From the IMG/VR virus record IMGVR_UViG_3300020469_000008, positions 96,001-160,000 of that record: a stretch of DNA of 64,000 nt, one strand, 5' to 3'. Below are positions 3,547 to 61,643 of this stretch, one piece after another. Position 1 is the stretch's first letter, and the number at the start of each line of letters is the position of its first letter. The translations under genes and the position numbers were made by a program. The notes under the pieces were generated by a model. It had not been told where the DNA came from. It did not search any database and saw only the letters and a list, made by a program, of their open reading frames with translations. The DNA comes from a virus (lineage: Duplodnaviria > Caudoviricetes).

Positions 3547-4458
3547 TTAAGCAGTTGCAGCATCAGCTGCTGCTGAAAATAACATTCCAGCCACATTTGA
3601 TGAACCTGGGAATATTAAATCAAAACCAGCTTTAGCAAAATCATTTGCAGCTTGTTTCGCAGCAGACTTGCCTTCTTTTACGTCCCCAGCTGTCTTTTGA
3701 ATATATTCTAACATTTCTGTATATAACTTTTCTGGAGCGTTTTCTAATTCTTTCTTTTGTCTTTTAAATTCTTTTTTAATTTCATCGAAAAAATTAGAGC
3801 TAATTACACCATCTGTTAATAGATCCAAAGCAACGCCTTCTTGTTTCATTGAGACTTTATTATCTTTGACTTCTATAAGCTCAGCAGCTAAATGCTGAAT
3901 CATTTCCTTTTCACCGTAATTCTTGATACCTAAATTAGCAGTTACTTCGGCAAACCCATCTTTACTATCAAAGTCTGAATCAGTTAAATCCATACCATAC
4001 TGTTTTACTCTTTTAGCTCTGTCACTATTTAGGTCGTCATACATCTTGCGCAAATTTCTTAATGCCCCTTCGACAGTACTTAAATTGTCAATTGTATTAA
4101 TTAATATTGCCGGTACTATTGAGTAAGCTGCAATAACAGCCGCGCCTAAACCAAAGGCACTCGCTCCGGCCGCTAAGCTTTCTCCAGACAAAAAACCGAT
4201 CTTTGATAATGCTCCACCGTATTTTGCAAGATAATCATCAAAATTACTAGTTGTAACTTTTTTAACTACGTCGTCCAGCACACTTAATGAGTTATTGAAA
4301 TCTGAGAGTATACTTTGGTCTGTAATTATGTCCTTCGCTACAAAATTAGCAAACTCACCTGATACTGACTTAAGCTCGTTAAGCATTTGGCTATTTCTTT
4401 TATTAGCAAATAGAAACTCTAGAATTATTGTATTGAGTTGTCTTTTTGAAATTTTCAT
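3547..4458 (-). CDS. MKIT-leader family protein (start trimmed to MKISKRQLNTIILE)
   Basis: Shared N-terminal leader; GGAG RBS on minus strand. Confidence 0.75.
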   Translation of the reverse strand: MKISKRQLNTIILEFLFANKRNSQMLNELKSVSGEFANFVAKDIITDQSILSDFNNSLSVLDDVVKKVTTSNFDDYLAKYGGALSKIGFLSGESLAAGASAFGLGAAVIAAYSIVPAILINTIDNLSTVEGALRNLRKMYDDLNSDRAKRVKQYGMDLTDSDFDSKDGFAEVTANLGIKNYGEKEMIQHLAAELIEVKDNKVSMKQEGVALDLLTDGVISSNFFDEIKKEFKRQKKELENAPEKLYTEMLEYIQKTAGDVKEGKSAAKQAANDFAKAGFDLIFPGSSNVAGMLFSAAADAATA

Positions 4459-4514
4459 GTAAAACTCCGCCTTATTCGTTAATATTAATATATATCTTTT
4501 TAATTGGAAAATAA

Positions 4515-4928
4515 ATGTTAATTTCACCTTTTGGATTACTCCAAGAACAACTAAATAAAGATCCTTGGAAGATCTTTGTTTGTTGTATATTCTGCAACCT
4601 TACAAAAAGAAGAGCGTCAGAACCCTATTTTTGGAAGTTTCTACAGAAATGGCCAACGCCGCTAGCTGCTTCTGATCTAAATGAAAACGAGTTGAAAGAA
4701 TTAATTCAACCTTTAGGCTTAGTTGATAGGCGAACAAAGGCTTTAAAAAAGATGTCATCTGATTATTTAAAAAAAGACTGGGAAGACGATGCCACTAAAT
4801 TATATGGTATTGGTAAATATGGCTCAGATGCGTATAGAATATTCGTAAAAGAAGAATGGCGCGAAGTCATTCCTACTGATAGTGCACTTAAAAATTATAA
4901 ATCTTGGCTGGAGGAAATAAATGCCTGA
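4515..4928 (+). CDS. MBD4-like HhH-GPD DNA glycosylase (G:T/G:U mismatch)
   Basis: SPFGLLQEQL..DPWK, LGL..R, LYGIGKYGSDAYRIF, P-x-D motifs closely follow the MBD4 glycosylase domain. Confidence 0.85.
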   Translation: MLISPFGLLQEQLNKDPWKIFVCCIFCNLTKRRASEPYFWKFLQKWPTPLAASDLNENELKELIQPLGLVDRRTKALKKMSSDYLKKDWEDDATKLYGIGKYGSDAYRIFVKEEWREVIPTDSALKNYKSWLEEINA

Positions 4929-5727
4929 AGGACCCGAAGTAAAAACAACTGTTGATTTTTTAAAATCATATGAAGGAAATATTCTCACAAAACTAACAGT
5001 TTTGTCTGGAAGATACACCAAAAAGCCTATTGTCAACATTAACAACCCATCTTGGAGACTCCCTTTAAATTTAGAATCTGTAGACTGTAAAGGTAAGTTT
5101 ATATACTTTTGTTTGCAAGAAAATGTTTACTTTTTTAACACGTTAGGTATGACTGGTATGTGGTCAAATAGTGCATCGAATCATGCTCGAATCAAATTAG
5201 ATTTTGACGGTGAAGCAGCACCATTATATTATAATGATGTTAGAAATTTCGGTACTTTTAAAATCGCTTTGCTTAAAAAAGACTTAGACAAAAAGTTAAA
5301 ATCAATTGGACCTGACTTTCTTAAAGACGGCTGGGGCCCAAATTATTTTTATAGAATTCTTAAAAAGAATTCTCATAAAACAATAACAGAATTTTTAATG
5401 AATCAAAAAAATGTAAGTGGGATAGGCAACTACTTGAAAGCTGAATGTTTATATGAAGCAAAAATATCACCACATCGTTTTTGTGCCCATATAACATCAG
5501 AAGAGTCTGACAGGTTATTCCACGCTTGCAGGCGCATCATACAATTATCTTATAAAACGGGCGGCGCAACGATTCAGAACTATCGTAAGCCAAACGGAAA
5601 AAAAGGTTTGTACAGTCAGCGCTTTGCTGTGTATAATCAAAAAACTGCACCTTGTGGTAATAAAATTATTAAAGAAAAAACTCTTGATAAAAGGACCACA
5701 CATTGGGTGCCAGCCATTCAAAAGTAA
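4921..5727 (+). CDS. Fpg/Nei family DNA glycosylase/AP lyase
   Basis: N-terminal MPEGPE, GKF, LGMTG, H2TH motif SGIGNY; zinc-finger cysteines mostly absent. Confidence 0.9.
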   Translation: MPEGPEVKTTVDFLKSYEGNILTKLTVLSGRYTKKPIVNINNPSWRLPLNLESVDCKGKFIYFCLQENVYFFNTLGMTGMWSNSASNHARIKLDFDGEAAPLYYNDVRNFGTFKIALLKKDLDKKLKSIGPDFLKDGWGPNYFYRILKKNSHKTITEFLMNQKNVSGIGNYLKAECLYEAKISPHRFCAHITSEESDRLFHACRRIIQLSYKTGGATIQNYRKPNGKKGLYSQRFAVYNQKTAPCGNKIIKEKTLDKRTTHWVPAIQK

Positions 5728-5736
5728 GGAGATATT

Positions 5737-5964
5737 ATGAATGAAAATGTAAAACTGAATGATAGCGTAATCGCACACTTTGTTAAACTTTTACAGTTAG
5801 GATTATTAACAGGTACAGATATTGTTGACCATTTTAGAATGGTTAGACTCACTGTAGAAGAGGATGAATTATTTCTCAACAAAGAATACGAAGAAAATCA
5901 AGAAGAAAACATCAACAAGATGCTCCAGCAAGTAACAGAGAATTCAGAAACACAGGAACAGTAA
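5737..5964 (+). CDS. Hypothetical protein
   Basis: AAGGAG RBS, operon position. Confidence 0.7.
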   Translation: MNENVKLNDSVIAHFVKLLQLGLLTGTDIVDHFRMVRLTVEEDELFLNKEYEENQEENINKMLQQVTENSETQEQ

Positions 5965-6344
5965 TGAAAGAATGTAAACTTGAAGAAATGTTTAAATTAA
6001 GACTGTCTTTTATGAAAACTATGAAAGAGGTTATTCCAGGGTCATATCCAGATTTTCCTGTTGACATCTCAGAAAAAGCATCTCAGCAAGTTTGTCGTGA
6101 TTTAGCACTTAAAGGTGTTGAAGAAATGTTTGAAGCATTACAACATTTAAAAAACTGGAAACCACATCGTGTTACAAACATTGAGCATACACTTGATAGA
6201 GAAGAGTTCTTAGAAGAGATTGTCGATGCACTAAACTATTTCTTTGCGATGTTAATAGTAACTGGGTTTGATGAAAAAGAATTGTTTACTGCATATTTAA
6301 AAAAGGATGAGAAAATAAGACAACGTCTTACTAATGGTTACTGA
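5964..6344 (+). CDS. All-alpha NTP pyrophosphatase (dimeric dUTPase/dCTPase, MazG-like)
   Basis: EEMFE..NWKPH...EEIVDALNYF acidic motifs and C-terminal R..NGY. Confidence 0.75.
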   Translation: MKECKLEEMFKLRLSFMKTMKEVIPGSYPDFPVDISEKASQQVCRDLALKGVEEMFEALQHLKNWKPHRVTNIEHTLDREEFLEEIVDALNYFFAMLIVTGFDEKELFTAYLKKDEKIRQRLTNGY

Positions 6345-7507: not shown

Positions 7508-7510
7508 AGA

Positions 7511-8413
7511 ATGAGATTATCGAAAAGCCAGTTAAGTCTAATTATTGAAAACTATTTATTAGAAAGCGTTAATACAGAATCTATACGTTCTGAATTTGAA
7601 AAAGCAAGAGATCAACTTAAACAAGAATTTTTAAATTCAGATAAATTTGATAAAGTTGTAAGGGCTAGTGTTGGTAAAGGTTTAGACATGACGCATCTTT
7701 ATGTAGTTCCAAAAGATGATCCAATCAATAAGAATCCTGAGTTTTCTGCTTATGAAGGTTATGCACTTCACGTAAAATTTGTAAGGGGTGAAGAAAGACC
7801 TAAAAAAGAATATTTTGATACGGACATAATAAAAGACAAAGAATTGGAAAGCAAGTTTAGTTCAAAGCCTATTGTAAATCCAATTGTTGTTATATTTGAA
7901 AAAAATATAAAATCAAAAATTAGCCTTAAGCGCTTATTACTTCATGAGCTCGGTCACGTAAAAAACAATTTTTTAAAGTTTTATGCCGGAATAGATTTGA
8001 ATGTTAATGAGGTTCGAGCGGTACTTCGAAAAGATTTTCAAGGAAAGTCTATCGGTAAAATTGTAAATATACTTAGATCTGAAAAGCGCTTAGGTAGAAT
8101 TAACCCACCAGGTTTTTTAAGGCTAGTAGAACGACTTAAAAAATATTATGATGGCGTTTTTGCAGATCCAGCAGATGAATTATCAGTTGACGAGTTTGCT
8201 GTTAGAATATCGGCTTTGCAAAGAGACATTGTTGCGCAAGCTTCAGTTTCACCCCGTGCTGAAGAAGTTATGTCATTTACAAAAATGGAACGTAAATATG
8301 GGATAGACGCAGCCGGCTTAGCACTATTTTTGGAAAAAAATGTTACATTTGAAAAGATACAAGCAGTGGCACAAAACATTAAAAAAAGTAACACAAAAAG
8401 TGCAACAGGGTAA
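7511..8413 (+). CDS. Leader-family protein with zinc metallopeptidase motif
   Basis: MRLSKSQLSLIIE leader; HELGH motif and downstream DEFAVR. Confidence 0.7.
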   Translation: MRLSKSQLSLIIENYLLESVNTESIRSEFEKARDQLKQEFLNSDKFDKVVRASVGKGLDMTHLYVVPKDDPINKNPEFSAYEGYALHVKFVRGEERPKKEYFDTDIIKDKELESKFSSKPIVNPIVVIFEKNIKSKISLKRLLLHELGHVKNNFLKFYAGIDLNVNEVRAVLRKDFQGKSIGKIVNILRSEKRLGRINPPGFLRLVERLKKYYDGVFADPADELSVDEFAVRISALQRDIVAQASVSPRAEEVMSFTKMERKYGIDAAGLALFLEKNVTFEKIQAVAQNIKKSNTKSATG

Positions 8414-8707: not shown

Positions 8708-8730
8708 TTAGTTCTTTTCAAACAGCAAAT

Positions 8731-8812: not shown

Positions 8813-9796
8813 ATGCCACAAAATCTAGATTTAAAACCTGTCGACTTACCAATGGAGTTGAAGTTTGGTCAAGAACCACACACAATTTTCCATAACAATC
8901 TTGAACATCTTAAGGTAGAACTTATCGATGCTCCTACACGCTCACAAGCATTAAATGTTGCTTGGCAATATGTAAAAGCAACTTGGGCTGATCATCATGA
9001 TGAGACAAATCCAAGCACAACTAGTCTTAAAGAATTGTCTGCAAATCTCGAGGATGTGCTCTGTTTCCGCGCGCTACCAACACCAATGGAATGCCTAGGG
9101 TTTACTTTTAAGTTGTCTGGCTTGTCATTTCAAGAGGTTACACACATTATTCGACATCGAGCGGGTTCTTTCGCAGCTCAATGTACTGGTGATCGCGATT
9201 TACGTGACGATCCTGCAGTTATTCCTGAAGCAGTACAAAACTCTCCTGAGTTTCTGGAAAGATATAAAAGAATTGTGCGTGATTCAAAGCAACTTTACGC
9301 AGACATGACAGATTCAAAAGATGTATCAATGATGGATGCAAGAATGATTCTTCCAAAGGCAATGACATCATTTTATCTGATGCGTCTTAATCTCAAAGAT
9401 TTGTTAGGTTTTATTGCACAACGTCAAGATATGCAAATCCAACCTGCAGCAGATAATTTACTTGCCGTTTACATGGCACGTGAAGTTTTAAAAGTTTTAC
9501 CTGAGGCATCAGCAAGGATTGATTTCAACAAACCAGATATGCACTACATTAAAACGTTCCGTGTACCTGATGGTAAAGGTGGAGAAACATCGCGAGGCAC
9601 AAATCTGTACTGGCCTGAACCTAAGAATGATAAATTTGATTATCATCCTAACGATACAATTTATCAGTCACGCCGAGAGGATATTAACGGTACACATAAT
9701 CCAGGTACAGAAACAGTTTTCACACAATTGTGGAATGAAACATTAACAGAAATCGATGCAATTAAAGCGTCATACAATCAATTTATGGGGAAATAA
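8813..9796 (+). CDS. thyX: ThyX-like flavin-dependent thymidylate synthase homologue (atypical motif)
   Basis: FTF..G.S....H..RHR..SF motif, DARMILP; Cys where canonical ThyX has the active-site Ser. Confidence 0.75.
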   Translation: MPQNLDLKPVDLPMELKFGQEPHTIFHNNLEHLKVELIDAPTRSQALNVAWQYVKATWADHHDETNPSTTSLKELSANLEDVLCFRALPTPMECLGFTFKLSGLSFQEVTHIIRHRAGSFAAQCTGDRDLRDDPAVIPEAVQNSPEFLERYKRIVRDSKQLYADMTDSKDVSMMDARMILPKAMTSFYLMRLNLKDLLGFIAQRQDMQIQPAADNLLAVYMAREVLKVLPEASARIDFNKPDMHYIKTFRVPDGKGGETSRGTNLYWPEPKNDKFDYHPNDTIYQSRREDINGTHNPGTETVFTQLWNETLTEIDAIKASYNQFMGK

Positions 9797-10315: not shown

Positions 10316-11707
10316 ATGAAAATTACACGACGACAATTGAGACGACTATTAAGTGAAAGACTGTTAGTAGAAGCATCTGCTGAAGAATTAGCAAATATGA
10401 AGGGCACATATTCTATAAACCCACAGTCTGCGCAGTCACTAGGATTCGCCGGGGCTCAATCAGGCGCCGGACAAATAAAGGTCGGTCCTCGAGGCAACGT
10501 GAACGTTGGAACTAAGGATGGAAATTTTATCCGTGAAATCAAACCATCAGAAGTCACTCCGGAGCAACTAAATTACATAACACTCGGGTATGATAGAAAA
10601 CAAGCAGCAAATAATACCGTCATGGGGGAAATGAGCACTTATTTCAGAAAAAATGCAGGGTACTACAAGGTCAACAATCAATCCGGTGTACCTGCAGGAG
10701 CCACACACATTAGAATTTATGGTGATGCTAAATACCGATATATCAATTTCAATGAAAAACCAGAAAAATATGTAGGTGCCAAAGAACCAATTGCACCCTC
10801 TGTATTCCTCGGTTGGAAAAGCTTCATCGATGGTTTGACGAAAGACAGCAACCCGAGCAGTGCTGATACTTCCACTGAAGGTGAAACAGACACCAGCGCT
10901 GAAAGAGACGGTGAACAGCAACAACAACAGCAGCAACAACAGCAACCAAAACCAGAAAAGAAGAATAAACCAAAAAAATCAGCTGATAAAGATAAGAAAG
11001 TTGCTTTCATAAGAAAAGTTATTGGTGATGACGCTCCTGGCAAGTGGAACAAAGAATCAGATAAAAAGTGGAAAACTTGGGTCGAAGGGCCATACTACGC
11101 AGCAGGCGTACGCACATTTCAAAACTTTTATGCGATGGTGCAATTAGGTAAAAACAACAAAACTAATGCAACAGAAGAGGATTTTGATGCAGCTCACAAA
11201 GAAAACAACGCTGTCAGTTTAGCTAAATTAGCGGGATTCAAACCAACAATTTCAGGTGTCTACAACATGTGCAAAGAAATTGATGAAATGTCGAAAGAAG
11301 ATCTTCAAGCTACAGCAATGGCAATAACTGCTACTACTGAAGGAGAAACAAACACCGCGGCGAGCAAAGCAGTGGACAAAGATGAAGTAATAACTCAATC
11401 ATTTACCGACGATATTAAGGCTGAGATGTTTGGGGATGAAATTGCCAAAATTCAAGATCCAAGAGAAAAGTCTCGAGCAGTCAAAAACGTAGTAAACGCG
11501 TACAACAAGAAGAAAGAAGAATTAAAGAAAAAAGGCGACGAGAGGGAAATTCAAAATTTGGATAGAGGATTTAAGCTTTTTAAGAAAAGGTCTAAAGCTT
11601 CGAAAGAATTTGAAGCTGCATCTGAAAAGGTTGATGAAATAAAAGACCTGCAAGAATCGTTAAGCAGGGGCGCACTATATAGAAAGCATTACTACGGAAG
11701 ATACTAG
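10316..11707 (+). CDS. MKIT-leader family protein with poly-Gln tract
   Basis: MKITRRQLRRLLSE leader; Q10; C-terminal SRGALYRKHYYGRY. Confidence 0.85.
   Translation: MKITRRQLRRLLSERLLVEASAEELANMKGTYSINPQSAQSLGFAGAQSGAGQIKVGPRGNVNVGTKDGNFIREIKPSEVTPEQLNYITLGYDRKQAANNTVMGEMSTYFRKNAGYYKVNNQSGVPAGATHIRIYGDAKYRYINFNEKPEKYVGAKEPIAPSVFLGWKSFIDGLTKDSNPSSADTSTEGETDTSAERDGEQQQQQQQQQQPKPEKKNKPKKSADKDKKVAFIRKVIGDDAPGKWNKESDKKWKTWVEGPYYAAGVRTFQNFYAMVQLGKNNKTNATEEDFDAAHKENNAVSLAKLAGFKPTISGVYNMCKEIDEMSKEDLQATAMAITATTEGETNTAASKAVDKDEVITQSFTDDIKAEMFGDEIAKIQDPREKSRAVKNVVNAYNKKKEELKKKGDEREIQNLDRGFKLFKKRSKASKEFEAASEKVDEIKDLQESLSRGALYRKHYYGRY
10916..10945 (+). repeat. CAG/CAA poly-glutamine microsatellite (10 codons)
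   Basis: cagcaacaacaacagcagcaacaacagcaa. Confidence 0.9.
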
Positions 11708-12774
11708 ATCAATATTTTCTTCTTAAGTTTTTCAGATACAAGGTGTCTAAGAGTGAGCTCGTCAATACGAAACAACCTTCGTTCTTCTAGACCTCTTTGC
11801 TTTTTATCGTCTAGTTTAACTTCACGTCCAGTATCAGTAATTTTCTTTTCTTTAAATTCCATCTTCTTATCTGAAGTAATATCTTTAAGTTTCACACTGA
11901 GATCATCGTTGATTTCTTTACCTGAGATCGGCATAATAGCAGAAAGCTTTTTACCTTTTACCAGTTCAAACATAGCTGTTATTGTTTGACGTCCAACTTT
12001 GTAATCTTTTTGCAATCCATTTGCCTTCTGAAACTTACCAACAGCTTCTTTTGTTTTTGGGCCATAATCGCCATCGATATCATCGTCGGAATCTAAGTGT
12101 TTAAGTTGTACTAACGCTTTTTGTATTGCAGCTGTCATCATTTTATTTTCATTGTCTGATTTATTCATTGAAGTACTTAGAATTTTGTCACCTGACAATA
12201 CATCTTTAAAAAGTTCTTTTGCGCTAATCTCAAAGTCTCTGATTCCTTCTACACCGATAATTGTAATCATCCATTTAATTACATTGAATGTACCTTTTTC
12301 TGTTTCTTGCTTTACAACCTTAGGTTCTTTACCGCCAGGCTGTCGTTGTAACTTTGTACCATCAGCATCCGCGGCTGCTTTAAGTTTATCCTTACCTATT
12401 TTCTCTTCCGTATCTTTAACTTTTTGTGCACGATCGATACCTACGGAAACCTTAGCTTTTGATATGAATTGTTTTAGCTTTGACTTTATAACCTTTCTTT
12501 TGTCTTTATCAATTGCCATACCGAAGTAACTTAGAATTTTGTTATAAAAATCGATGTCTCCACTACTTAAGTTTCTATGCTTAGAACTTTTATTAAGTGC
12601 CGATTGTAATCCATCAAATAAGGACTTTGCTTTTTTGTTGAAATTTTGTTTTGATTCAGTTTGTGCTAGCGCAACTAGTCTTAGTATGATTGCATTTTTT
12701 ACGTCAAATTGTGCGTTTTTCATGCCAGGTTGCATGAAGGTTTTAATTGCTTGTCTGTCACCTCTTTTAAGCAT
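11704..12774 (-). CDS. Peptidoglycan-binding domain protein
   Basis: IQKALVQL..IDGDYGPKTKEAVGKFQKANGL..DYKVGRQT matches PG_binding_1. Confidence 0.8.
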   Translation of the reverse strand: MLKRGDRQAIKTFMQPGMKNAQFDVKNAIILRLVALAQTESKQNFNKKAKSLFDGLQSALNKSSKHRNLSSGDIDFYNKILSYFGMAIDKDKRKVIKSKLKQFISKAKVSVGIDRAQKVKDTEEKIGKDKLKAAADADGTKLQRQPGGKEPKVVKQETEKGTFNVIKWMITIIGVEGIRDFEISAKELFKDVLSGDKILSTSMNKSDNENKMMTAAIQKALVQLKHLDSDDDIDGDYGPKTKEAVGKFQKANGLQKDYKVGRQTITAMFELVKGKKLSAIMPISGKEINDDLSVKLKDITSDKKMEFKEKKITDTGREVKLDDKKQRGLEERRLFRIDELTLRHLVSEKLKKKILI

Positions 12775-33013: not shown

Positions 33014-34051
33014 ATGAGAATGACTAAAAGACAGCTTAGTGAAGTAATTACAGATTACTTGTTAAGTGAGGCAGAATTTGGATCATTTAGGGGTAGTGTA
33101 GATATAGAATTCTGTGATTTAAGCGGATTACCTAAAATCTTCACAGCTATTTTTGAACCAATAAGAGATCGAGACAGTTCAAAGCTTAAGCTCGCTTTAA
33201 GTGAAGAGCTTGAAAAAGCTGAGGCTAGCCGTGATAAGCGAAGAATTGAAAAATTAAGTGCACGAATTAGCGAATTAGAAGATGAAAATTATTGGTCAGG
33301 TTCAGATGCATTTGCCGGTATATTTGGGTCTGCAACTTTCATGGGCTTAACAAAAATCCTAGGACCAGGTTTGACAATGATGACAATGATGACAAAGGTA
33401 GATTGTGATCACATCATAAATCTTGTTAATATATTCACAGTTAACATTTTAGCACCGTTGTTAGGAATTGAAGGTGCACAACTTCAAGAACTTGAAGACG
33501 AAATTAAAAGAAACAAAGGTGAGAGAGTTACATCGAGTGAAGGTGAGGCGCAAAATCAGTCGAATATGTATTCTGATGATATGCAAGTAAAAATATTCAA
33601 CTCAGTGTCGAATGTTTTTAAGGATAACAATCTTTTAAATTATGAAAAACGTGACGAAGCAAGAGTGTCTGGTAAATTACGTTTAAATGATTATGACGGC
33701 AAAATAACTGATATGCACTTAGATTTCTTTGAGCTATTTTCTCCTGTTGAATATTTAAAATTTTTAGAGGATCCTAGAGAGGATATTCCAGAATCAGCAA
33801 AAGATAATTTTCTTAATGCCATAAAAATTTTAGAAGATCAAGGCCATCGAGATTTTGGATCTTTTATAAATGCATTTGTATTAGCCACACCAGGAACAAG
33901 AACAGATAGTGCTGTGGCAAAAATTCTTAAAGCAGCAAATTTAAAAAATTATTTTAAGGAACCTAAAGATGCAATAAAGTTTGTGAAAACAACATTTAAC
34001 ACAATGTACAAAGAATTTGAATTTGACGGATTCCAATTATTCGGTTTATAA
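33014..34051 (+). CDS. Leader-family protein
   Basis: MRMTKRQLSEVITDYLLSE. Confidence 0.8.
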   Translation: MRMTKRQLSEVITDYLLSEAEFGSFRGSVDIEFCDLSGLPKIFTAIFEPIRDRDSSKLKLALSEELEKAEASRDKRRIEKLSARISELEDENYWSGSDAFAGIFGSATFMGLTKILGPGLTMMTMMTKVDCDHIINLVNIFTVNILAPLLGIEGAQLQELEDEIKRNKGERVTSSEGEAQNQSNMYSDDMQVKIFNSVSNVFKDNNLLNYEKRDEARVSGKLRLNDYDGKITDMHLDFFELFSPVEYLKFLEDPREDIPESAKDNFLNAIKILEDQGHRDFGSFINAFVLATPGTRTDSAVAKILKAANLKNYFKEPKDAIKFVKTTFNTMYKEFEFDGFQLFGL

Positions 34052-50478: not shown

Positions 50479-50777
50479 TTTTCCCACCACACATTTGCAA
50501 CGTCCCAATCAATCATTTCACTTAGCCAATTAGGAAATGAACCTGTACAATCAAAATCAAACCACTCGCCCTTGCAAGATTGTTTATAGGGCTTCAAAGA
50601 TTTAAGCAGGGATCTTTCTAAATCACCCCTACCATTTACTATGGTGAGCAACTTAAGTTTATATGGAGATCCAGTTTGAAGCTGTCGCAACCTATTTTGG
50701 GGATTTTTACTCATACCAATTTTAATTGCGCCCGTGACGTCAGATTGTATTACATAAAGGTGTTTATTCATATACAT
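50475..50777 (-). CDS. GIY-YIG / T5orf172-like protein
   Basis: LYVIQ....IKIG.S.NP..RL..LQTGSP..L, GEWF. Confidence 0.8.
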   Translation of the reverse strand: MYMNKHLYVIQSDVTGAIKIGMSKNPQNRLRQLQTGSPYKLKLLTIVNGRGDLERSLLKSLKPYKQSCKGEWFDFDCTGSFPNWLSEMIDWDVANVWWEN

Positions 50778-50838
50778 AATTTTATATAGTTATTTACTCT
50801 AATAAACAATAATTATAAAATATGTGCGAGGTACATTG

Positions 50839-51825: not shown

Positions 51826-51833
51826 GTCATCAT

Positions 51834-52403
51834 ATGAGATTAACAAGAAAGAATTTAAGAAAATTAATTTTGCGTGAATTTAAGTTGACCGGTCAAGCGT
51901 TTGATGATTTAATCGGTAACACAGGCAGCGGTGAACCTCCTCCAACTAAACCACCTAAAAGAGGCGGTGGCTCCGGAGAAGGTTGGCCGACTTCGGTTGT
52001 TGAGAGGTTGATCAATGCTGAGTATGGTAGTTTAAGCAAGTGGACACAGGATCCTCGAAATAGTCGTGCTGCTGTTTATGATAATTCACAAATCAAACTT
52101 TATGCTAAAGCTGTTGATTCTCAAAATTCACTTGTTTGTACTTTAGTCAGAGGAAACAAAGTTTTAGATCGATATGTGTTTATTAGAAAATCAGGTGGCG
52201 CTAGCGGAATGTTGCCTCGCATGATGGAGATTACAAATAATATATGTGATATGACAGGTAGTGAAGCAGAAAGGAAAGCTAGCGAATATAAAGAGTATAA
52301 CAAGAGTTTGATAGACTTTATGACTCGAAGCGGACCGCCCTACAAGGGTGATGATTGTGCACCGCCCGAGGATGATGGAACTGGTTGGATTAGGAGATAT
52401 TAA
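51834..52403 (+). CDS. MKIT-leader family protein (Gly/Pro-linker subfamily)
   Basis: MRLTRKNLRKLILREF...PPPTKPPKRGGG. Confidence 0.8.
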   Translation: MRLTRKNLRKLILREFKLTGQAFDDLIGNTGSGEPPPTKPPKRGGGSGEGWPTSVVERLINAEYGSLSKWTQDPRNSRAAVYDNSQIKLYAKAVDSQNSLVCTLVRGNKVLDRYVFIRKSGGASGMLPRMMEITNNICDMTGSEAERKASEYKEYNKSLIDFMTRSGPPYKGDDCAPPEDDGTGWIRRY

Positions 52404-53035
52404 TGAAAATAACAAGAAAACAATTGCGTCAACTGATGCTTAGAGAATTTAAATTTACCGGCAATAACTTTGTTGATGACCTAGATTTGTTAGGTGGAGG
52501 ACCTCCTCCTGCAGAGTCTCAAGAACCTAGTGGCGGTGGCGGTGGCGGAAGAATTCATCAACTGGTGCGTATTGATTTTGAACCGGGTAATGAGTTTAAT
52601 CCTAGTTCATATAATAAAGTAGCTATTGATGTTAGCGCCGGTTCGACTTTTTCTAAGATGCGTGAGATTTATAATTTATTTTCTGATAACACAAAGAACA
52701 AGCTTTACCAGATGTTTCCAGGTGGTATCGATCCAGAAGACGGATATGTAGATGCCGATGGAGACTTTATCTTTGATCAAGATAAAATATGGGATTTTCG
52801 AAGCGAGTATTATAATTTGTTAAACACTATGGATGATGCGCTTCCAGAAGGGAGTGATTACGAGTATTTTACTATTTTTCATCCAAGTTACGCTAGTCAT
52901 GGTAGAAATTTTGCTGGTGCTAATGAGTTGGAAGCTATAGACTTATATCGAAGGGTGACGGGTTATACACCTGATGAGGACTTGCTTGGCGAGTATGAGA
53001 TTATTATGCACAGCGCTAGTTCGTTGTTTGGGTGA
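52403..53035 (+). CDS. MKIT-leader family protein (Gly/Pro-linker subfamily)
   Basis: MKITRKQLRQLMLREF...GGGPPP..GGGGGG. Confidence 0.8.
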   Translation: MKITRKQLRQLMLREFKFTGNNFVDDLDLLGGGPPPAESQEPSGGGGGGRIHQLVRIDFEPGNEFNPSSYNKVAIDVSAGSTFSKMREIYNLFSDNTKNKLYQMFPGGIDPEDGYVDADGDFIFDQDKIWDFRSEYYNLLNTMDDALPEGSDYEYFTIFHPSYASHGRNFAGANELEAIDLYRRVTGYTPDEDLLGEYEIIMHSASSLFG

Positions 53036-53040
53036 AATAA

Positions 53041-53589
53041 ATGAAAATTACAAAAAAACAATTAAGACAATTAATAAGCGAAGCCGTTTCTCAAAATCAT
53101 CGACGACAGGAAGCGTTGTATGCTGTAGTATATACGTCTGGTTATCTTGATGCGTCTGATACAGCGATTGGTAATATCCTTAGAAATTACAAGGAGCTTT
53201 CCGGTCGTACTGATAGTTGGGTGCCTCTCGATGAAGCATTCGGCAACTTGAATGCTGTTATGATTGGTGGCGCTTCTGCGATAAAGAGAGAAAACCCGGG
53301 ACTCGATCTTACAGAGGAATTAGTTATTCTTCGAGAGGGCCAGGCTGCTGGCCAGGCAGATTTTCGAGAGAGCCCGTATAAATACATTGAACAAGTAGCT
53401 ACTCTTGTTAACGTGCAAACGCCAGTAGGTATGAGTGCTGCTGAAGGTTTAGGAATCTTTGGGGTTGCAGGAGGAGGTGTTTTACTTAGAGACACTGCCA
53501 TTGGGGACGTACAACTCTTGCTTAATTTAATGAATAATGATAATATTTTAAGTTGGTTAGATGAGTTAGAAAGCATGCAGTCCATCTAA
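53041..53589 (+). CDS. MKIT-leader family protein
   Basis: MKITKKQLRQLISE. Confidence 0.8.
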   Translation: MKITKKQLRQLISEAVSQNHRRQEALYAVVYTSGYLDASDTAIGNILRNYKELSGRTDSWVPLDEAFGNLNAVMIGGASAIKRENPGLDLTEELVILREGQAAGQADFRESPYKYIEQVATLVNVQTPVGMSAAEGLGIFGVAGGGVLLRDTAIGDVQLLLNLMNNDNILSWLDELESMQSI

Positions 53590-53605
53590 TACATGAGGTT
53601 AAAAA

Positions 53606-54373
53606 ATGAAAATAACAAGAAGACAATTAAGAAAACTTATAAACGAAGTCATGGTAGGCTATCCTGATGAGCGTGCACCATTCGATGCAACTGCTGCATT
53701 AAAAAGCGCGAAAAAGAAAATCTCAAAAGAGCCAGCGCTATCAGACATGTTTGATGACGATGACGATTACGACCAAAAAAGACAAGCTTATGCCTTAGGA
53801 TCAATGACTACAGATCTCACAGATGATGAAGAACTTGCTGCAGATATGGCGTCTGATGTCATTAGGGATACTGTTGACCCGGATGAATACGAAACATCCT
53901 ACAATTACAACCCTTTTGATGCGGTTCCTGGTTCTGAAGAGCTAGATCCGGATCAGCGTTTTTTCCATGAGGTAGACGATTATCAACCAATTGAGCAAGC
54001 GCTTCAAGGAACTGTCAAAGACATTATACCTGAATTGCAGATATCGAGGTTTGAAAAAAATAAAAGAGCATCTCAGGACAAGACAACTTATTACACACCG
54101 GATAAAAAATTCCAAATTTTAATGTCATTTCGTCCTGCTTACGAAGACATAGAAGATGGTGTTGATTACAGTACACCACCACAATATACAGTTGAAGTTA
54201 GAAAGTATATGCCTAAAGTCCAAAGATATGAGATGTATTCACCTGGTCCTGGTAGCTTTGACAAGTTTCGTGATGGAACTAAAGCCTTCTTTTCCACTAC
54301 CTCGACGACTGCTAGATTTGTACAGGTGTTAGATCACCTAAGAAGGTATCTTGAGGAGTTAAAATCATTATGA
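53606..54373 (+). CDS. MKIT-leader family protein
   Basis: MKITRRQLRKLINE. Confidence 0.85.
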   Translation: MKITRRQLRKLINEVMVGYPDERAPFDATAALKSAKKKISKEPALSDMFDDDDDYDQKRQAYALGSMTTDLTDDEELAADMASDVIRDTVDPDEYETSYNYNPFDAVPGSEELDPDQRFFHEVDDYQPIEQALQGTVKDIIPELQISRFEKNKRASQDKTTYYTPDKKFQILMSFRPAYEDIEDGVDYSTPPQYTVEVRKYMPKVQRYEMYSPGPGSFDKFRDGTKAFFSTTSTTARFVQVLDHLRRYLEELKSL

Positions 54374-55023
54374 AAATAACAAGAAGACAGTTAAGAAAAC
54401 TCATCAATGAAATGAGAATTGACACTAAAAATCCATTGGACTTTGTACCTGACGGGCCAATGAAGGACAATGTAATGGATCTAATAAACGATCCGGATAA
54501 AGACGTACAGCGCCAGGGGTATGAGCTAGCTTCTTTAATGCAAGAACCAATAGAGCTTGATGCTGGTGGTGGACAAAAGTACGAAGATATTGGCTACGAA
54601 GGCGAAGATTATTTAAAAGACCTCCGCGCGGGACTATTAAATCGTGAGCAAGTGATCAGTATTTTAGATAATCTATTCGACAAAAATAAAGACTTTGAAG
54701 TACTTTCCTTTCGAGAGGGAGCCGCCCCTTCTGGAAAATTTTCGGGTCAGTACAGGGAAGTATTAAGTGATGACTTTAGTAATCGTGCTGAACGCATAAA
54801 CATTAGTGTAGGTAGTCCGGGTAACAAGCCCGATTATGAAACAGGCGAATTTAGATCAGGGAAATCATTAACTTGGATAAATATTGAACAAGGACTTTAT
54901 TATGACTTTGTTGCAGCAATACGTGTTTCAGATCATGACGATGACAGCAAAGGTCACAAATTAAGAGACGTAATTAGCGCATACATGCTTGCAGTCAATA
55001 TCGTGAGTAAGCATTTAAAATGA
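54370..55023 (+). CDS. MKIT-leader family protein
   Basis: MKITRRQLRKLINE. Confidence 0.85.
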   Translation: MKITRRQLRKLINEMRIDTKNPLDFVPDGPMKDNVMDLINDPDKDVQRQGYELASLMQEPIELDAGGGQKYEDIGYEGEDYLKDLRAGLLNREQVISILDNLFDKNKDFEVLSFREGAAPSGKFSGQYREVLSDDFSNRAERINISVGSPGNKPDYETGEFRSGKSLTWINIEQGLYYDFVAAIRVSDHDDDSKGHKLRDVISAYMLAVNIVSKHLK

Positions 55024-55073
55024 AAATAACAAGAATATATAGAAATCCAATGGCAGCAATTCGGAGTTTTTAA
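55020..55073 (+). pseudogene. Internally deleted leader-family gene remnant (MKITRIYRNPMAAIRSF*)
   Basis: 15-nt family header joined to 39 nt that match the 3' end of gene 57477-57956 at 31/39 positions. Confidence 0.75.
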
Positions 55074-55777
55074 TGAAAATAACAAGAAGACAATTAAGAA
55101 AATTAATAAGTGAGGCAATCAAACGTGTTCCTGTATTTGAACCTGTGTCGCGTGAAGAAGTTCGCAGTAAGCTAGCTCAAAAACGCGCACAGAGCCGAAG
55201 TGCTGCAGACATCGATCCAGCTATGTTAAGTAAGATTGGCGAGATGGAAGCCTTGGGAGACGCTGAATCTAACCAGGCGCGGTCCTTTGCGCAAGCACTA
55301 GGGTCGATGGCACCGGCAGAAGACGTCACCGATCAACAAGAAGATGAGTATGCTGATAAGATGCTCACGCAGCATATGGGATATTATCTTGGGCCAGGCG
55401 TGAAAAAAACAGAAACGCGACTTCTAAACAAAATGGCAAAAAGATTAAAAAGCTATAGGAAGGCTGGAAGCCCTATTGAGGTTTGGATCTCTGAAGGAGT
55501 TAACTACCCTAGAACTGCAATAATTCCACGTGAACCTGAAAGAGAAACAGTAGATAGTTTATTAAAAGCTTTAAAAAATCAAGTCTATTATATTCATAGT
55601 TATGGTTATGGCGATGCCCGAGATTACCTTGAACCCTTTTTTGATAATCAAATAGATGAATATGAAGAATTCTTGGACCAATTAAAGATTGGTGGTAGTC
55701 AACCGCCTGATTACTATGTTTTTGCAGCGTTGGTTTATTTTGTTGGTAAAGATAAAATCGTTATTAAAAGTATGTGA
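55073..55777 (+). CDS. MKIT-leader family protein
   Basis: MKITRRQLRKLISE. Confidence 0.85.
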   Translation: MKITRRQLRKLISEAIKRVPVFEPVSREEVRSKLAQKRAQSRSAADIDPAMLSKIGEMEALGDAESNQARSFAQALGSMAPAEDVTDQQEDEYADKMLTQHMGYYLGPGVKKTETRLLNKMAKRLKSYRKAGSPIEVWISEGVNYPRTAIIPREPERETVDSLLKALKNQVYYIHSYGYGDARDYLEPFFDNQIDEYEEFLDQLKIGGSQPPDYYVFAALVYFVGKDKIVIKSM

Positions 55778-55785
55778 AACTAAGA

Positions 55786-55814
55786 ATGAAAATAATAACT
55801 CTTCTCGATATAAT
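55786..55814 (+). promoter_or_regulatory. Sigma70-like promoter of tmRNA
   Basis: ATGAAA-17 bp-TATAAT, 10 nt upstream of the mature 5' end. Confidence 0.55.
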
Positions 55815-55824
55815 ATATAGGTAA

Positions 55825-56161
55825 GGGCCCGTAATGGTTTCGACGGGGTAGAATCAAGGGGAGAGTGCAAGTAGGGAAGATACGCCCTTAACAGTTCAAA
55901 CATAATAGTTGCAAACAATAACAACTTTTACGACGTAGCTTTAGCTGCATAATCGTGGTGGTCGTCTCAAACCATCTAACCAAGAGAGGCTTTAGCAGTT
56001 GGAACTGCCGAGAAATAAAATGACAACAGTCCTCACTCGGTCACGGAGAGGCGAACAATACAGTGACTATCCTGTTAATCGGAGAAATGATTAGATAAGC
56101 TTGTGAATGACTCAAACTAAGACTATTGCGGACAGGGGTTCGACTCCCCTCGGGTCCACCA
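55825..56161 (+). ncRNA. ssrA: tmRNA; tag peptide ANNNNFYDVALAA (55911-55952)
   Basis: Acceptor stem GGGCCCG/CGGGTCC with G3:U wobble, encoded ACCA end, T-arm GGGGTTCGACTCCCC, TTCGAC near 5' end, resume codon GCA, tag ending ALAA. Confidence 0.95.
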
Positions 56162-56175
56162 CTTTAGGATGTATT

Positions 56176-56436
56176 ATGGCAGACAAAAATGATAAATGGG
56201 AAGATAACGTAGGTGGGTTTAGAATAATTAACGGTAAGAAAGTTTCTTTCTATGTTGATCGAGAGTGTATACTTTGTTCAGTGTGTGAAGAGGTTGCACC
56301 TAACAATTTTAAAATGAATGACAATGATGATCATGATATATGTTACAAACAACCAGAAAACGAAGAGGAACTCGAAGAATGTTATGAGGCCTTAGATTCG
56401 TGTCCGGTAGAGGCTATTGGCGATGATGACATTTAA
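56176..56436 (+). CDS. Ferredoxin (single Fe-S cluster type)
   Basis: CILCSVC...AP and CPVEAIG; start trimmed to MADKN. Confidence 0.9.
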   Translation: MADKNDKWEDNVGGFRIINGKKVSFYVDRECILCSVCEEVAPNNFKMNDNDDHDICYKQPENEEELEECYEALDSCPVEAIGDDDI

Positions 56437-56452
56437 TTTTTTCTTCACAGAT

Positions 56453-56496
56453 AACTCCTGCTAAATTTGATATATATTTATAGCAGGAGTTTTTTT
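56453..56496 (+). terminator. Terminator hairpin that also sequesters the downstream AGGAG RBS
   Basis: 11-bp stem AACTCCTGCTA/TAGCAGGAGTT, T7 run, GTG at 56497. Confidence 0.75.
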
Positions 56497-56928
56497 GTGT
56501 CTGGAATTGAATTCAAACAAGGTGATCAAGTTATTGTTGATAATTTTCTTGAACAAGGTGATAGGTTTAAACTTATAGCAAGTAATGTTTGTCAGGTTCT
56601 GGCAGTGGGTAAGTATGATTTAATAGTTAAGTCACATGAATCTTCTTACTATCCTCGAATATTTACAGTATCTAAGTTGGTGTGCAGAAGAATCTCAAAA
56701 AGCAAGTCAAAAGTCCAGGTTGACGTGACACTTCCAAAAATCAACGATTTAGTTGCAGGAATCACATCTGACTTGGGGAATAAAAATCAAGAAATGCATG
56801 TTGGTGTGTTAGAAGAAATTAGACACAACAACACTTCTTCAAAAACTGCAGTAGTTAGGGAAGGAAATAAACGCACAAACATATCCTTATCTAGTTTAAT
56901 TGTTTTGGAGCAAAAGAATGAAAAGTAA
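56497..56928 (+). CDS. Hypothetical protein (tandem SH3/KOW-like)
   Basis: GTG start 7 nt after AGGAG. Confidence 0.6.
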   Translation: MSGIEFKQGDQVIVDNFLEQGDRFKLIASNVCQVLAVGKYDLIVKSHESSYYPRIFTVSKLVCRRISKSKSKVQVDVTLPKINDLVAGITSDLGNKNQEMHVGVLEEIRHNNTSSKTAVVREGNKRTNISLSSLIVLEQKNEK

Positions 56929-57475: not shown

Positions 57476-57476
57476 C

Positions 57477-57956: not shown

Positions 57957-58003
57957 AAATATTTGTAAATTTACAAAAACCATCTTTACTATTTAGGTGT
58001 CCC

Positions 58004-58453: not shown

Positions 58454-59295
58454 TGCATGTGACAGGTGACACGCCTTTGATACCTATTGGAAACGGTTTA
58501 ATTTGGGCAAAATTAGAAACGCATAACAGAACCGGTTCAGTTAAAGATAGAATGATAAACTACATTATGAATATTGCATTGCAATATAACAATGTTAAAC
58601 CGGGTGTAACTACCATAGTAGAAGCCACTAGTGGTAATACAGGAATATCATTAGCGTCATATGCATCATCAATCGACTGTCCCTGTAAGATTATTATGCC
58701 ACGAAATATGTCTGCACAAAGAAAAGATATGATGCGAGCATTTGGTGCAGAAATAATTGAAACTCCCGACAACGATTTCTTAGGTGCTATTGACATAAGG
58801 AATAGTATGATCGAAGAAACAGATGTATTTTCACCTATGCAATTCTCGAACCCGTTAAATATTGACTGTCACTACAATATCACAGCACCTGAAATATATG
58901 AACAATGTGTTGATTTGATGTTAGACTGGCGAACTTTTGTTCACGGATCTGGTACGGGTGGAACAATGATGGGAGTTAAAAAATATATCGATTTCGCCGG
59001 CTTAAATATAAAATGTGTTCTGACTCAACCAAAAGAAGACAATCTTACACACGGCATACAGGGGATTAACGATGGAGCTGACTTTTTACTGGACCGGTCA
59101 CTGATGGATGCAACGATATCTGTAAAAACAGAAGATGCTATAAAACGGATGAAACAGTTTTGGCAAGAGACGGGAATACTGGTAGGTATTAGTAGTGGTG
59201 CTAATATTTTAGCTGCTGAAAATTACTTAAAAACATTCAATCCGTCTGGTATAATTATAACAGTGCTGTGCGATCGCGGCGAGAGATATTTATGA
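58450..59295 (+). CDS. cysK: Cysteine synthase (PLP-dependent, CysK/CysM family)
   Basis: KLE..N.TGSVKDR, EATSGNTG, GTGGT, IQGI, GISSGA, LCDRGERYL. Confidence 0.9.
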   Translation: MMHVTGDTPLIPIGNGLIWAKLETHNRTGSVKDRMINYIMNIALQYNNVKPGVTTIVEATSGNTGISLASYASSIDCPCKIIMPRNMSAQRKDMMRAFGAEIIETPDNDFLGAIDIRNSMIEETDVFSPMQFSNPLNIDCHYNITAPEIYEQCVDLMLDWRTFVHGSGTGGTMMGVKKYIDFAGLNIKCVLTQPKEDNLTHGIQGINDGADFLLDRSLMDATISVKTEDAIKRMKQFWQETGILVGISSGANILAAENYLKTFNPSGIIITVLCDRGERYL

Positions 59296-59942
59296 AACTA
59301 ACAAGAAGACAATTAAGAAAACTAATAAACGAAACAATCTTTGCAGGTGGGCCAACTGTTGACAGCCCTGACAAAAGCGTAGGGGTGACAGTTGACATGG
59401 GAAGACAAAACCCGCCGATATATCGACCCCAGAGTGACAGAGACGAAGAAATTAGAAGAACAGCAGATCCACGAATTGTCGATCTGTTAGATTCCGATTC
59501 TGAAGCGGACAAGCAAATGGCGAGGACATTAGCTAGCTCTATTGACGGGAAACCAGAGGCGTATGAGACTTTAACTCCGGAGGAGCGCGAAGCACAGGGT
59601 TTGTTTGATGAGTTTTACCCTGAAGATCCGTTTGACGAGCCACACGACATGTCAGGTGATATGGAAAGATCGTACGCTCCTGAGATACAACAGATAAGAA
59701 ATGCTATGAAGAAAAGAATCGAGGATGCTATGGACAAAGGTGCTAGTAGTTTTGACGATTTATATTCAGCTGCTTATACTACACCAGGTTATGATAACCT
59801 GAGAAGACATTTGATGAATTTACCTTTAAACCAAAGGCGGAACGCCAAAGGTGTTTATGGCGACAAACCCGAAGATGAATTAATGAACATGCCCGGTCAA
59901 TTAGTTGACATGTATCAGAAACATGATAGCGATCATTATTAA
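59292..59942 (+). CDS. MKIT-leader family protein
   Basis: MKLTRRQLRKLINE; start trimmed. Confidence 0.85.
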   Translation: MKLTRRQLRKLINETIFAGGPTVDSPDKSVGVTVDMGRQNPPIYRPQSDRDEEIRRTADPRIVDLLDSDSEADKQMARTLASSIDGKPEAYETLTPEEREAQGLFDEFYPEDPFDEPHDMSGDMERSYAPEIQQIRNAMKKRIEDAMDKGASSFDDLYSAAYTTPGYDNLRRHLMNLPLNQRRNAKGVYGDKPEDELMNMPGQLVDMYQKHDSDHY

Positions 59943-59952
59943 AGAGGCTGAA

Positions 59953-60414
59953 GTGAAACTAACAAGAAGACAACTGATCGATCTAATAAACGAAGCAATA
60001 GATCCTGTTAGAGTAAAGACAGTAAAACCTGAGGATTATAATCCTCCCCAAGCTTTCAGCTCTGTCAGTTTAGGAAAGCCAAGGGAGCTTGAGACACCAG
60101 CCAAACGCGTTGGAAACTTTTTTGCCACGCGACTGCCTTACAAACCCCCGCGAGGTTATTCATCATTAAATAAAAGAAAATATTTTTACATGGTTCTTCC
60201 TGACGGTGAGGCTATTAATATTGATCATAGAGATATTAGGATTAACAATCAAAAATTAGTAAATGCATATTTAACGTTATTAAATCAGAAAGTTACACCT
60301 TTACCGATAGAAGATATACATCAACCCACAATTGAAGACGAACAAAATATTCAAAAAATGCGTTCCCAAATTGAGTTGGTTGTTAATGAATTTAAGGCGA
60401 CACATGATATTTAG
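59953..60414 (+). CDS. MKIT-leader family protein
   Basis: GTG start after GAGG; KLTRRQLIDLINE. Confidence 0.8.
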   Translation: MKLTRRQLIDLINEAIDPVRVKTVKPEDYNPPQAFSSVSLGKPRELETPAKRVGNFFATRLPYKPPRGYSSLNKRKYFYMVLPDGEAINIDHRDIRINNQKLVNAYLTLLNQKVTPLPIEDIHQPTIEDEQNIQKMRSQIELVVNEFKATHDI

Positions 60415-60422
60415 ATGTTTGT

Positions 60423-60450
60423 ATGAGTAGAGTAACAGTAATGATACGTG
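60423..60450 (+). repeat. 28-bp direct repeat, copy 1 (duplicate of the start of gene 61662)
   Basis: atgagtagagtaacagtaatgata(c/g)gtg, 27/28 identical to 61662-61689. Confidence 0.9.
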
Positions 60451-60471
60451 TAATAGAGGAAAAAGATACTT

Positions 60472-61128
60472 ATGAAATTAACAAGAAATAAATTAAGAAG
60501 ACTTTTAAAAGAAACAGTGAATGATGCATTTGTAGTTTCAGAAATACAATCTTTTGTAGACAACAACCAATATCTAAAAGGCACCGTAGTAAACGAGCAA
60601 GACTTAATCCATGACACTCGTTATGTTTTATTTGCACCAGAAAGTTCTTTAGGACATATCAAGGACAGACACATGAATGTTGACGCCCCTGGATCAACAA
60701 TGTATCCAGAAGTAGATTTAAGACAAACGATATCAGCAGTCCTCCAAACTCCTGAAACATCATCGCCTGAAGATTTTATGGTAAAGTGGGAAGGAATAGT
60801 TTCACCGGTAGGACCAATTGGCGACATGGGTGTTGCAGCAGCACCAATAGAAACTGTAATGATGATGCAAGATTATCAAATGCCTGGTGGTAGAAATGAA
60901 ATGGTTAAAGTGGCTCAAGGTCAAAGAATGTCGACAGACGAAATTACACTAGTCACTGCAAAATTAGGTCAGTTAACTGACGGAAGGTTGGTTATAAGTT
61001 TAGTAACAATGTATCCTGGCGGTTCAACTGTTGACAGTATACCGATACCTTTTGATAGAAACCAGTTTGCAGCATCAGGATTATATTTTCCTTTACCTGC
61101 GACTAGTCCAATATTAGCAGCTATTTAA
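60472..61128 (+). CDS. MKIT-leader family protein
   Basis: MKLTRNKLRRLLKE. Confidence 0.8.
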   Translation: MKLTRNKLRRLLKETVNDAFVVSEIQSFVDNNQYLKGTVVNEQDLIHDTRYVLFAPESSLGHIKDRHMNVDAPGSTMYPEVDLRQTISAVLQTPETSSPEDFMVKWEGIVSPVGPIGDMGVAAAPIETVMMMQDYQMPGGRNEMVKVAQGQRMSTDEITLVTAKLGQLTDGRLVISLVTMYPGGSTVDSIPIPFDRNQFAASGLYFPLPATSPILAAI

Positions 61129-61139
61129 GGAAATTACAT

Positions 61140-61643
61140 ATGAAAATAACTAGAAGACAGTTGAGAAAGTTAATCCAAGAATCATTGTTACGTGAAGGCG
61201 ACGTTAAAAAAATGAAGTCAACATACGTTCACAATGATGATGCAGAAGCTATAGCTAAAAGTCTGCTTGATACAGACAAGAAAAAACCAACATTTAAGTT
61301 GCACTTAGATAAACACACAGCATACAACGCGTATATCAAACCAACCGGTCAAATATCTGGTAAGTATCATTTTGAACTAATCGATCCAAAGTCTGGTATA
61401 AAATTGGACGGTGGGGGTCACATTGAGTTTCCTGGTTTGAGTGACAAAGAAGGCACTCACCTTGGTGGTGAAATTGAATTAGCAAAACATTTAAAACAAA
61501 GTAATGTCGACGTCTTTTTAAAAGGAGACGCTAGTACACATTTAGGTTTGGATCACGGTAATGTTCACATTTCTGCACCTGACACAGCAATTACATTTGG
61601 TGTTAAGGGAAAAATTGGTAAATCTAAAAAGAAGCATGTATAA
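61140..61643 (+). CDS. MKIT-leader family protein
   Basis: MKITRRQLRKLIQE. Confidence 0.8.
   Translation: MKITRRQLRKLIQESLLREGDVKKMKSTYVHNDDAEAIAKSLLDTDKKKPTFKLHLDKHTAYNAYIKPTGQISGKYHFELIDPKSGIKLDGGGHIEFPGLSDKEGTHLGGEIELAKHLKQSNVDVFLKGDASTHLGLDHGNVHISAPDTAITFGVKGKIGKSKKKHV

Follow-up and report, generated by a model that had tools for sequence, protein, structure and literature searches.

Phage T4 packs into its head diverse internal proteins that share only a capsid-targeting sequence (PMC3012670); such sequences are propeptides of 10-20 residues, and the prohead protease gp21 cuts after the Glu of a short motif, e.g., ITE-6 and LTE-619 of Alt (PMC5694885). In phiKZ, 201phi2-1 and SPN3US, many partly paralogous head proteins carry propeptides that are removed after the Glu of a three-residue motif, and some paralogues keep identical N termini while their bodies diverge (PMC5694885). 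Here we analyzed a leader peptide found at the start of proteins that are otherwise unrelated, in an uncultured T4-like jumbo phage of marine origin known from metagenomes alone, starting from a window of 64,000 nt (bases 96001-160000) of the linear 202,054-bp IMG/VR virus record IMGVR_UViG_3300020469_000008, whose completeness is estimated at ~70%; coordinates refer to this window unless marked as genome positions. We put at roughly 60% the probability that the leader serves as a T4-like propeptide for capsid targeting, in a greatly expanded system with a different, basic tag, a reading built on the sequence features described below.

A 14-residue leader conserved as a peptide

The original prediction held that about 20 proteins of the window share one N-terminal leader. 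Translation confirmed all 20 listed positions as true starts of open reading frames (ORFs) that carry the leader; 19 use ATG and one, 59953, uses GTG. They open proteins of 131-463 aa with the consensus M-(K/R)-(I/L)-(T/S)-(R/K)-(R/K)-Q-L-(R/K)-x-(L/I)-(I/L)-x-E. In short form the leader reads M-K-I-T-R-R-Q-L-R-K-L-I-x-E, and the core consensus, M-K-I-T-(R/K)-R-Q-L-(R/K)-x-(L/I)-I-x-E, spans 14 residues. Its net charge is close to +4; positions 3, 8, 11 and 12 are hydrophobic, and positions 2, 5, 6, 9 and 10 basic. A six-frame scan of the window with a loose motif, taken from residue 2, gave 19 matches, each directly after a start codon, vs. a mean of 1.8 in mononucleotide shuffles of the sequence. 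As the same prediction had proposed, a profile of the leader was run over the whole genome: among 3340 candidate starts of the 202 kb, a position-specific matrix found 27 ORFs at 17-43 bits, and the next best start scored 4.8. Together with two variants shifted by one residue, at genome 87473 and genome 123670 (= window 27670, MKKLNRRKLRDVVLKE), the leader amounts to 27 clear and two shifted copies, i.e., ~29 of the ~255 ORFs on the contig (~11%). Nine copies fall outside the window, and seven leader genes (genome 47956-56641) stand directly after the capsid gene, ahead of sheath-like genes. The leader motif was not found printed in the literature searched.

What is conserved in the leader is the protein sequence. 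At least five different codons specify Leu8, and AGA, CGA, CGT and CGC all occur for Arg; the second codon position carries up to 2 bits of information and the third little, and the 40 nt upstream of the leader genes show only a weak Shine-Dalgarno signal. As synonymous codons vary freely, selection acts on the peptide. These results bear on two other explanations. The first is that the conserved element acts on the RNA, as a translational operator or ribosome-loading site over the start codon, which would fit its always including that codon; low third-position and high second-position information, with upstream conservation limited to the Shine-Dalgarno site, led us to reject such an element as vanishingly improbable. 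The second is a fast-evolving paralogous family or cassette system, in which the 5′ 42 nt would be a recombination homology patch and the peptide would have no targeting role. In keeping with it, leader DNA is near-identical in some copies (e.g., 53606, 54370 and 55073), neighbors are tightly packed in tandem, and the islands between conserved anchors vary among relatives, as detailed below. Free synonymous variation speaks against a patch, as does the retention of the peptide across contigs of very different codon choice; the bodies, of 104-463 aa and including a cellular-type YkuD domain, argue for fusion of unrelated genes. We thus regard this explanation as quite improbable, and recombination at the leader may be a secondary mechanism, with leader DNA doubling as a handle for cassette exchange.

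The extent of the leader was read from relatives. The pattern used to search IMG/VR held residues 1-8 only and yielded, among the matches listed (the scope of all IMG/VR counts below), 239 distinct leader ORFs. In these, residues 9-14 are still conserved (R/K, R/Q/K, I/L, Ile12 in 90%, K/R and Glu14 in 85%), and conservation drops to background past residue 15, so that the functional unit is 14 residues ending in I-x-E. The cleavage consensus of T4 gp21 is (L/I)-x-E. A site (L/I/V/M)-x-E with its Glu at residues 13-19 is present in all 29 leaders of this phage, vs. 32 of its 193 other ORFs (17%), and in 233 of the 239 IMG/VR leader ORFs. As a positive control, the back-translated T4 tag MKTYQEFIAE had two exact matches in the T4 genome, one opening ipII and one opening ipIII, which have an identical 10-residue leader ending in I-A-E.

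The head module and a probable capsid-targeting role

A T4-type head module lies outside the window, at genome 37.4-47.8 kb. It includes a T4-type large terminase (PF03237), a gp20 portal (PF07230, 4e-74), a gp21-type prohead protease at genome 41826-42455 (Peptidase_S77, PF03420, 4.7e-28, 98.5 bits vs. a cut-off of 27; phrog_207, 1.7e-53) and a major capsid protein of the gp23 type (PF07068, 3e-77). When aligned to the structure of T4 gp21 (5JBL, 5.5e-17), the protease shows a His within G-E-C-D-H-P, a Ser within S-S-R-G-V-G-S and an Asp within F-D-M-V at gp21 positions that we take to be the catalytic residues. In the capsid protein, the N-terminal 61 residues contain L-T-E12, I-Q-E28, L-L-E52 and L-R-E61, and alignment to mature T4 gp23 maps the T4 maturation point to residues ~53-62. 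Between the protease and capsid genes, a 490-aa ORF of net charge -52 occupies the scaffold-gene position and is a candidate scaffold, and two small ORFs (genome 42446-42982 and 43027-43239) take the T4 gp67/gp68 position. Near their N termini, these two display leader-like L-K-N-I-V-K-E and I-Q-R-I-I-V-E-E, and they may be prohead-core ancestors of the tag. The protease also accompanies the leader in relatives: S77 is encoded by 13 of the 17 leader-bearing contigs of at least 98 kb and by all 11 contigs with a CheckV completeness of at least 53%, and the four without S77 are 27-45% fragments.

Like the T4 capsid-targeting sequences (IPI, IPII, IPIII and Alt, processed by gp21), the leader is a short N-terminal tag, closed by (I/L)-x-E, on unrelated proteins; an S77 protease of the gp21 family is encoded in the same genome, along with T4-type portal, capsid protein and terminase; and the leader genes are scattered and vary greatly from one relative to another, as do the internal-protein loci of T-even phages (PMC3012670). 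The tag itself is unrelated, being basic and 14 residues long vs. 10 acidic-to-neutral residues (MKTYQEFIAE) in T4, and the copy number is ~10-fold higher, with ~29 per 202 kb here and up to 28 strict copies in relatives, vs. two identical tags in T4. Further differences are that these marine jumbo phages are uncultured, have a DnaE-type polymerase and are known here from their genes alone. The phiKZ-type phages resemble this one in being large, with many head-loaded proteins and N-terminal propeptides cut after Glu, but their motif is (A/S/G)-x-E, their propeptides are mostly >100 aa, their protease is of the S80 family and they have no universal short tag (PMC5694885); here, the residue two before the Glu is I/L and the protease is S77.

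In a capsid-targeting mechanism of the T4 kind, the basic amphipathic helix would dock the new protein onto the prohead core, its partner there being probably the acidic candidate scaffold; a leader of about +4 facing an acidic core makes electrostatic docking plausible. The capsid shell would then close round the core, and the gp21-type serine protease (Peptidase_S77) would cut after the Glu of I/L-x-E, releasing the tag and leaving the mature protein in the head with the DNA. Any gene fused behind the tag would become cargo, and an address given by the tag alone would explain both the ~29 unrelated carriers and the differing sets between related phages. The original prediction had likewise seen a capsid address tag for co-injected proteins, an interpretation that finds partial support here. 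The T4-type features that can be computed were all found; packaging, cleavage and co-injection, as well as the docking partner, residence in the virion and ejection, are what we infer from them.

Several points weigh against capsid targeting. The clade has no cultured member, and its leader, strongly basic, has no sequence similarity to the acidic-to-neutral T4 tag. The (L/I)-x-E motif is short and occurs near the N terminus of 17% of the other ORFs too. Recognizable cargo function is limited to one YkuD domain and one putative zincin, and loading ~29 protein species into one capsid surpasses anything shown for T4-type heads. Many leader genes stand singly among DNA-metabolism genes, outside the head module; the ip genes of T4 are likewise scattered outside theirs. 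Copies among replication and metabolic genes would also suit a docking or oligomerization helix for a partner other than the prohead (a hub protein of phage or host, nucleic acid in the manner of an arginine-rich motif, or the inner membrane surface), kept on the mature proteins, as would a basic amphipathic peptide predicted to be helical at residues 5-15. On the same side, and against capsid targeting, we count a complex prediction of the prohead protease with leader residues 1-40, which gave no support to the pairing (score 0.02), an uninformative result that provides no answer and is evidence neither way. A docking helix leaves unexplained the end of conservation exactly at a Glu with I/L two residues earlier, the strict co-occurrence with S77 on the contigs listed, the seven copies right behind the capsid gene and the leader-like motifs in ORFs at the prohead-core position, and we consider it rather unlikely.

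Leader genes, their bodies and their turnover

Eleven copies had been said to cluster at 51.8-61.6 kb, a count that is correct and becomes twelve with 50839; the twelve-gene cluster is interrupted by a transfer-messenger RNA (tmRNA) gene and by NUDIX and pyridoxal phosphate (PLP)-enzyme genes, the latter two without the leader. The leader genes of the window, with their matrix scores, are the following.

3547..4458, minus strand: leader gene, 303 aa (MKISKRQLNTIILE...), 30.0 bits, leader ATG at 4458 and not the GTG upstream at 4527, no Pfam family at the curated cut-off
7511..8413, plus strand: leader gene, 300 aa, leader variant ending I-I-E13, putative zincin-like metallopeptidase with HELGH, identified by the matrix and 12 homologues
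10316..11707, plus strand: leader gene, 463 aa, orphan body, 36.8 bits
14495..15019, plus strand: leader gene, 174 aa, followed directly by the DnaE gene, 39.9 bits
18638..19732, plus strand: leader gene, 364 aa, divergent leader (MQISRLNLKKLIKTLLNE), L-N-E at residue 18, 20.1 bits
26925..27383, plus strand: leader gene, 152 aa, 40.6 bits
27670..28065, plus strand: weak one-residue-shifted variant MKKLNRRKLRDVVLKE, 131 aa, L-K-E at residue 16, 4.8 bits unshifted, membership in the leader set uncertain
33014..34051, plus strand: leader gene, 345 aa, divergent leader (MRMTKRQLSEVITD...LSE19), 22.0 bits
50839..51825, plus strand: leader gene, 328 aa, predicted YkuD-type L,D-transpeptidase domain at residues 135-303 (PF13645, 6.9e-32), first of the twelve-gene cluster
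51834..52403, plus strand: leader gene, 189 aa, subclass ...LILREFK, L-R-E at residue 15, identified by the matrix
52403..53035, plus strand: leader gene, 210 aa, subclass ...LILREFK, acidic body, identified by the matrix
53041..53589, plus strand: leader gene, 182 aa, identified by the matrix
53606..54373, plus strand: leader gene, 255 aa, canonical MKITRRQLRKLINE, 41.6 bits
54370..55023, plus strand: leader gene, 217 aa, canonical leader, 42.6 bits
55073..55777, plus strand: leader gene, 234 aa, canonical leader, top score, 43.4 bits
57477..57956, plus strand: leader gene, 159 aa, sole cluster member with an orthologue in a syntenic relative (63% identity), identified by the matrix
59292..59942, plus strand: leader gene, 216 aa, identified by the matrix
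59953..60414, plus strand: leader gene, 153 aa, GTG start, 35.3 bits
60472..61128, plus strand: leader gene, 218 aa, identified by the matrix
61140..61643, plus strand: leader gene, 167 aa, canonical leader, 40.8 bits

What follows the leader is mostly unrelated, as originally proposed: blastp among the leader proteins of this phage minus their first 20 residues found no mutual similarity at E<1e-3. Pooling the 29 proteins of this phage with IMG/VR leader proteins of at least 60 aa gave 251 proteins; blastp sorted their bodies into 200 clusters, of which 165 have a single member. In this phage, isoelectric points of the bodies range from 4.1 to 9.7. An L,D-transpeptidase and a metallopeptidase had been recognized among them. 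The former agrees with Pfam, which predicts YkuD_2 in the product of 50839-51825 with 110.6 bits vs. a cut-off of 27. For the latter, at 7511-8413, the evidence is divided: HELGH is invariant in 12 homologues, all of which carry the leader, but the protein has neither a Pfam nor a PDB sequence match, and its best relevant fold match, the zincin-like 3e11_A, is weak (probability 0.80, E 0.38). Its AlphaFold2 model (mean predicted local distance difference test score of 61) displays a low-confidence leader helix at residues 5-15, and the confidently modeled region starts at about residue 20, after this helix. All remaining leader proteins are orphans; searches of Pfam, PHROGs, PDB sequences and the ESM Atlas gave nothing usable except YkuD. 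Genes of recognizable cytoplasmic function in and around the cluster, namely NUDIX, PLP enzyme, RNaseH-like, DnaE and GroEL, lack the leader.

The transpeptidase, an enzyme that acts on peptidoglycan, would suit a leader that is an export signal to the periplasm or envelope, e.g., of the twin-arginine translocation (Tat) type, and T-R-R-Q-L-R-K indeed resembles the Tat consensus S/T-R-R-x-F-L-K. Such a signal would, however, have a hydrophobic h-region; in 24 of the 29 proteins, no stretch of 12 or more apolar or small residues occurs, and charged residues follow the leader. Nor is there a conserved A-x-A site, conservation stopping at Glu14. A Tat or Sec signal was thus rejected, the twin Arg being present but the hydrophobic region missing in those 24 proteins, and export is very improbable.

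Leader genes are widespread among related contigs. The eight-residue pattern occurs in at least 111 IMG/VR stretches on at least ~90 contigs, vs. a rough chance expectation of ~10. Many contigs hold several copies; the contigs richest in strict 14-residue matches have 28, 20 and 17, and a reversed control pattern gave 0. A related contig, IMGVR_UViG_3300006802_000087, is syntenic with window 45.6-68 kb through anchors of 53-80% identity (a histidine kinase, a response regulator, ORFs 49921, 56900, 61662 and 63596, and the NUDIX, PLP-enzyme and RNaseH-like genes). From 49921 to 56900, this phage has seven leader genes and the tmRNA gene, and the relative three unrelated leader genes and one other ORF, with no tmRNA counterpart detected between the same anchors; from the PLP enzyme to 61662, it has four leader genes and the relative none; and from NUDIX to the PLP enzyme, it has none and the relative one. 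Only 57477 has an orthologue there. Leader-gene number and content thus differ between syntenic relatives, and the loci are hypervariable.

In GenBank phage records, the nearest capsid proteins are those of Microcystis phage Mel-JY01, Flavobacterium phage immuto, RM378 and two uncultured huge phages, the closest of all being that of LR756508 (484 kb, uncultured; 49% identity). LR756508 was also the sole match of a tblastn search of GenBank phages with the 25-aa leader: at least six small ORFs adjoining its head and tail genes open with M(K/R)L(S/T)E(R/K)KLR(R/K)IVKEE, with the same architecture and I/V-K-E end but different residues at positions 3-7. The record is unannotated, and no description of this family was found. 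The strict leader pattern is absent from Syn9, P-SSM2, HTVC008M, immuto, Mel-JY01, RM378 and LR756511, so that the tag is specific to one clade. The fuller proposal, that a universal, basic 14-residue plug-in tag loads 20-30 or more fast-exchanged, mostly orphan proteins per genome for co-injection throughout the clade, is in our estimate a little short of an even bet.

If the leader is a capsid address tag, the proteins injected by a large group of uncultured ocean jumbo phages could be recognized by inspection of sequence alone; the listed sample by itself yields at least 200 orphan families. As T4 internal proteins are known to counteract restriction, leader cargo would be a prime candidate for new anti-defense or takeover functions, and by this analogy the bodies may be effectors. 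They would then form an arsenal of injected proteins larger and more diverse than that known for any other phage, and a ready catalogue (at least 200 families) of candidate anti-defense and host-takeover effectors. The T4 tag logic would be ancient and re-codable, because clades use different tags with a common I/L-x-E end, and the leader would provide a second, orthogonal tag to package foreign proteins into T4-type heads.

Other N-terminal families and neighboring genes

Beside the MRLSERKLRRIVKEE leader family, the stretch LR756508.1 174332-214391 contains a second N-terminal family, M(R/K)(L/F)K-x-(L/I)L-x-E, in ORFs at stretch positions 3365, 4122, 5803, 6568, 7273, 8471, 17593, 38321 and 38848. 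Its proteins are mostly ~250 aa long (range 168-281 aa), and the family may represent another class of tag with an L-x-E end. In Flavobacterium phage immuto, the adjacent genes 193 and 194, upstream of the terminase, have similar N termini (..NF.L+.FL.ENKLT), which may be a tag peculiar to that clade and built on the same logic; one of the two is annotated as a cob(I)alamin adenosyltransferase.

GTDB genomes contain 13 leader stretches, all in contigs of marine metagenome-assembled genomes of inconsistent taxonomy, from which no host is inferred. Two of these contigs, NHDW01000006.1 (“Methylococcaceae bacterium TMED69”) and PBIO01000025.1 (“Halobacteriovorax sp.”), hold from 7 to at least 16 leader genes; NHDW01000006.1, of 305,838 bp, has at least 16 copies. 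The contigs are most likely jumbo-phage DNA mis-binned with bacteria. Two leader genes also occur in IMGVR_UViG_GVMAG-S-1030632-100_000001 (8158 bp), which bears a giant-virus label and is probably a mis-assigned phage fragment.

A promoter-like sequence, (G/A)ATAATTA(A/G), is found 13-66 nt upstream of the scaffold candidate, of both sheath-like genes and of at least six leader genes (e.g., at window 10250, 10282, 14466, 18610 and 50808), and occurs 45 times on the plus strand and 22 times on the minus strand genome-wide. Although possibly a late promoter, it was set aside as too weak to argue for late co-regulation, in an AT-rich genome where many other genes are also preceded by it.

Directly downstream of the leader gene 10316-11707, a gene on the minus strand, which has few genes, encodes a PG_binding_1 domain (window 11704-12774, 4e-12). 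Along with its T4-type head, the phage carries a DnaE-type Pol III alpha subunit with PHP, NTPase, finger and HhH domains (window 15092-18610), a full-length GroEL-type chaperonin (36626-38224), ThyX (8813-9796) and, at 48255-49921, a response regulator alongside a PAS histidine kinase. The tmRNA gene in the middle of the leader cluster (55825-56161, plus strand) is complete, scoring 108.7 bits with Rfam RF00023, and ARAGORN assigns it the tag ANNNNFYDVALAA.

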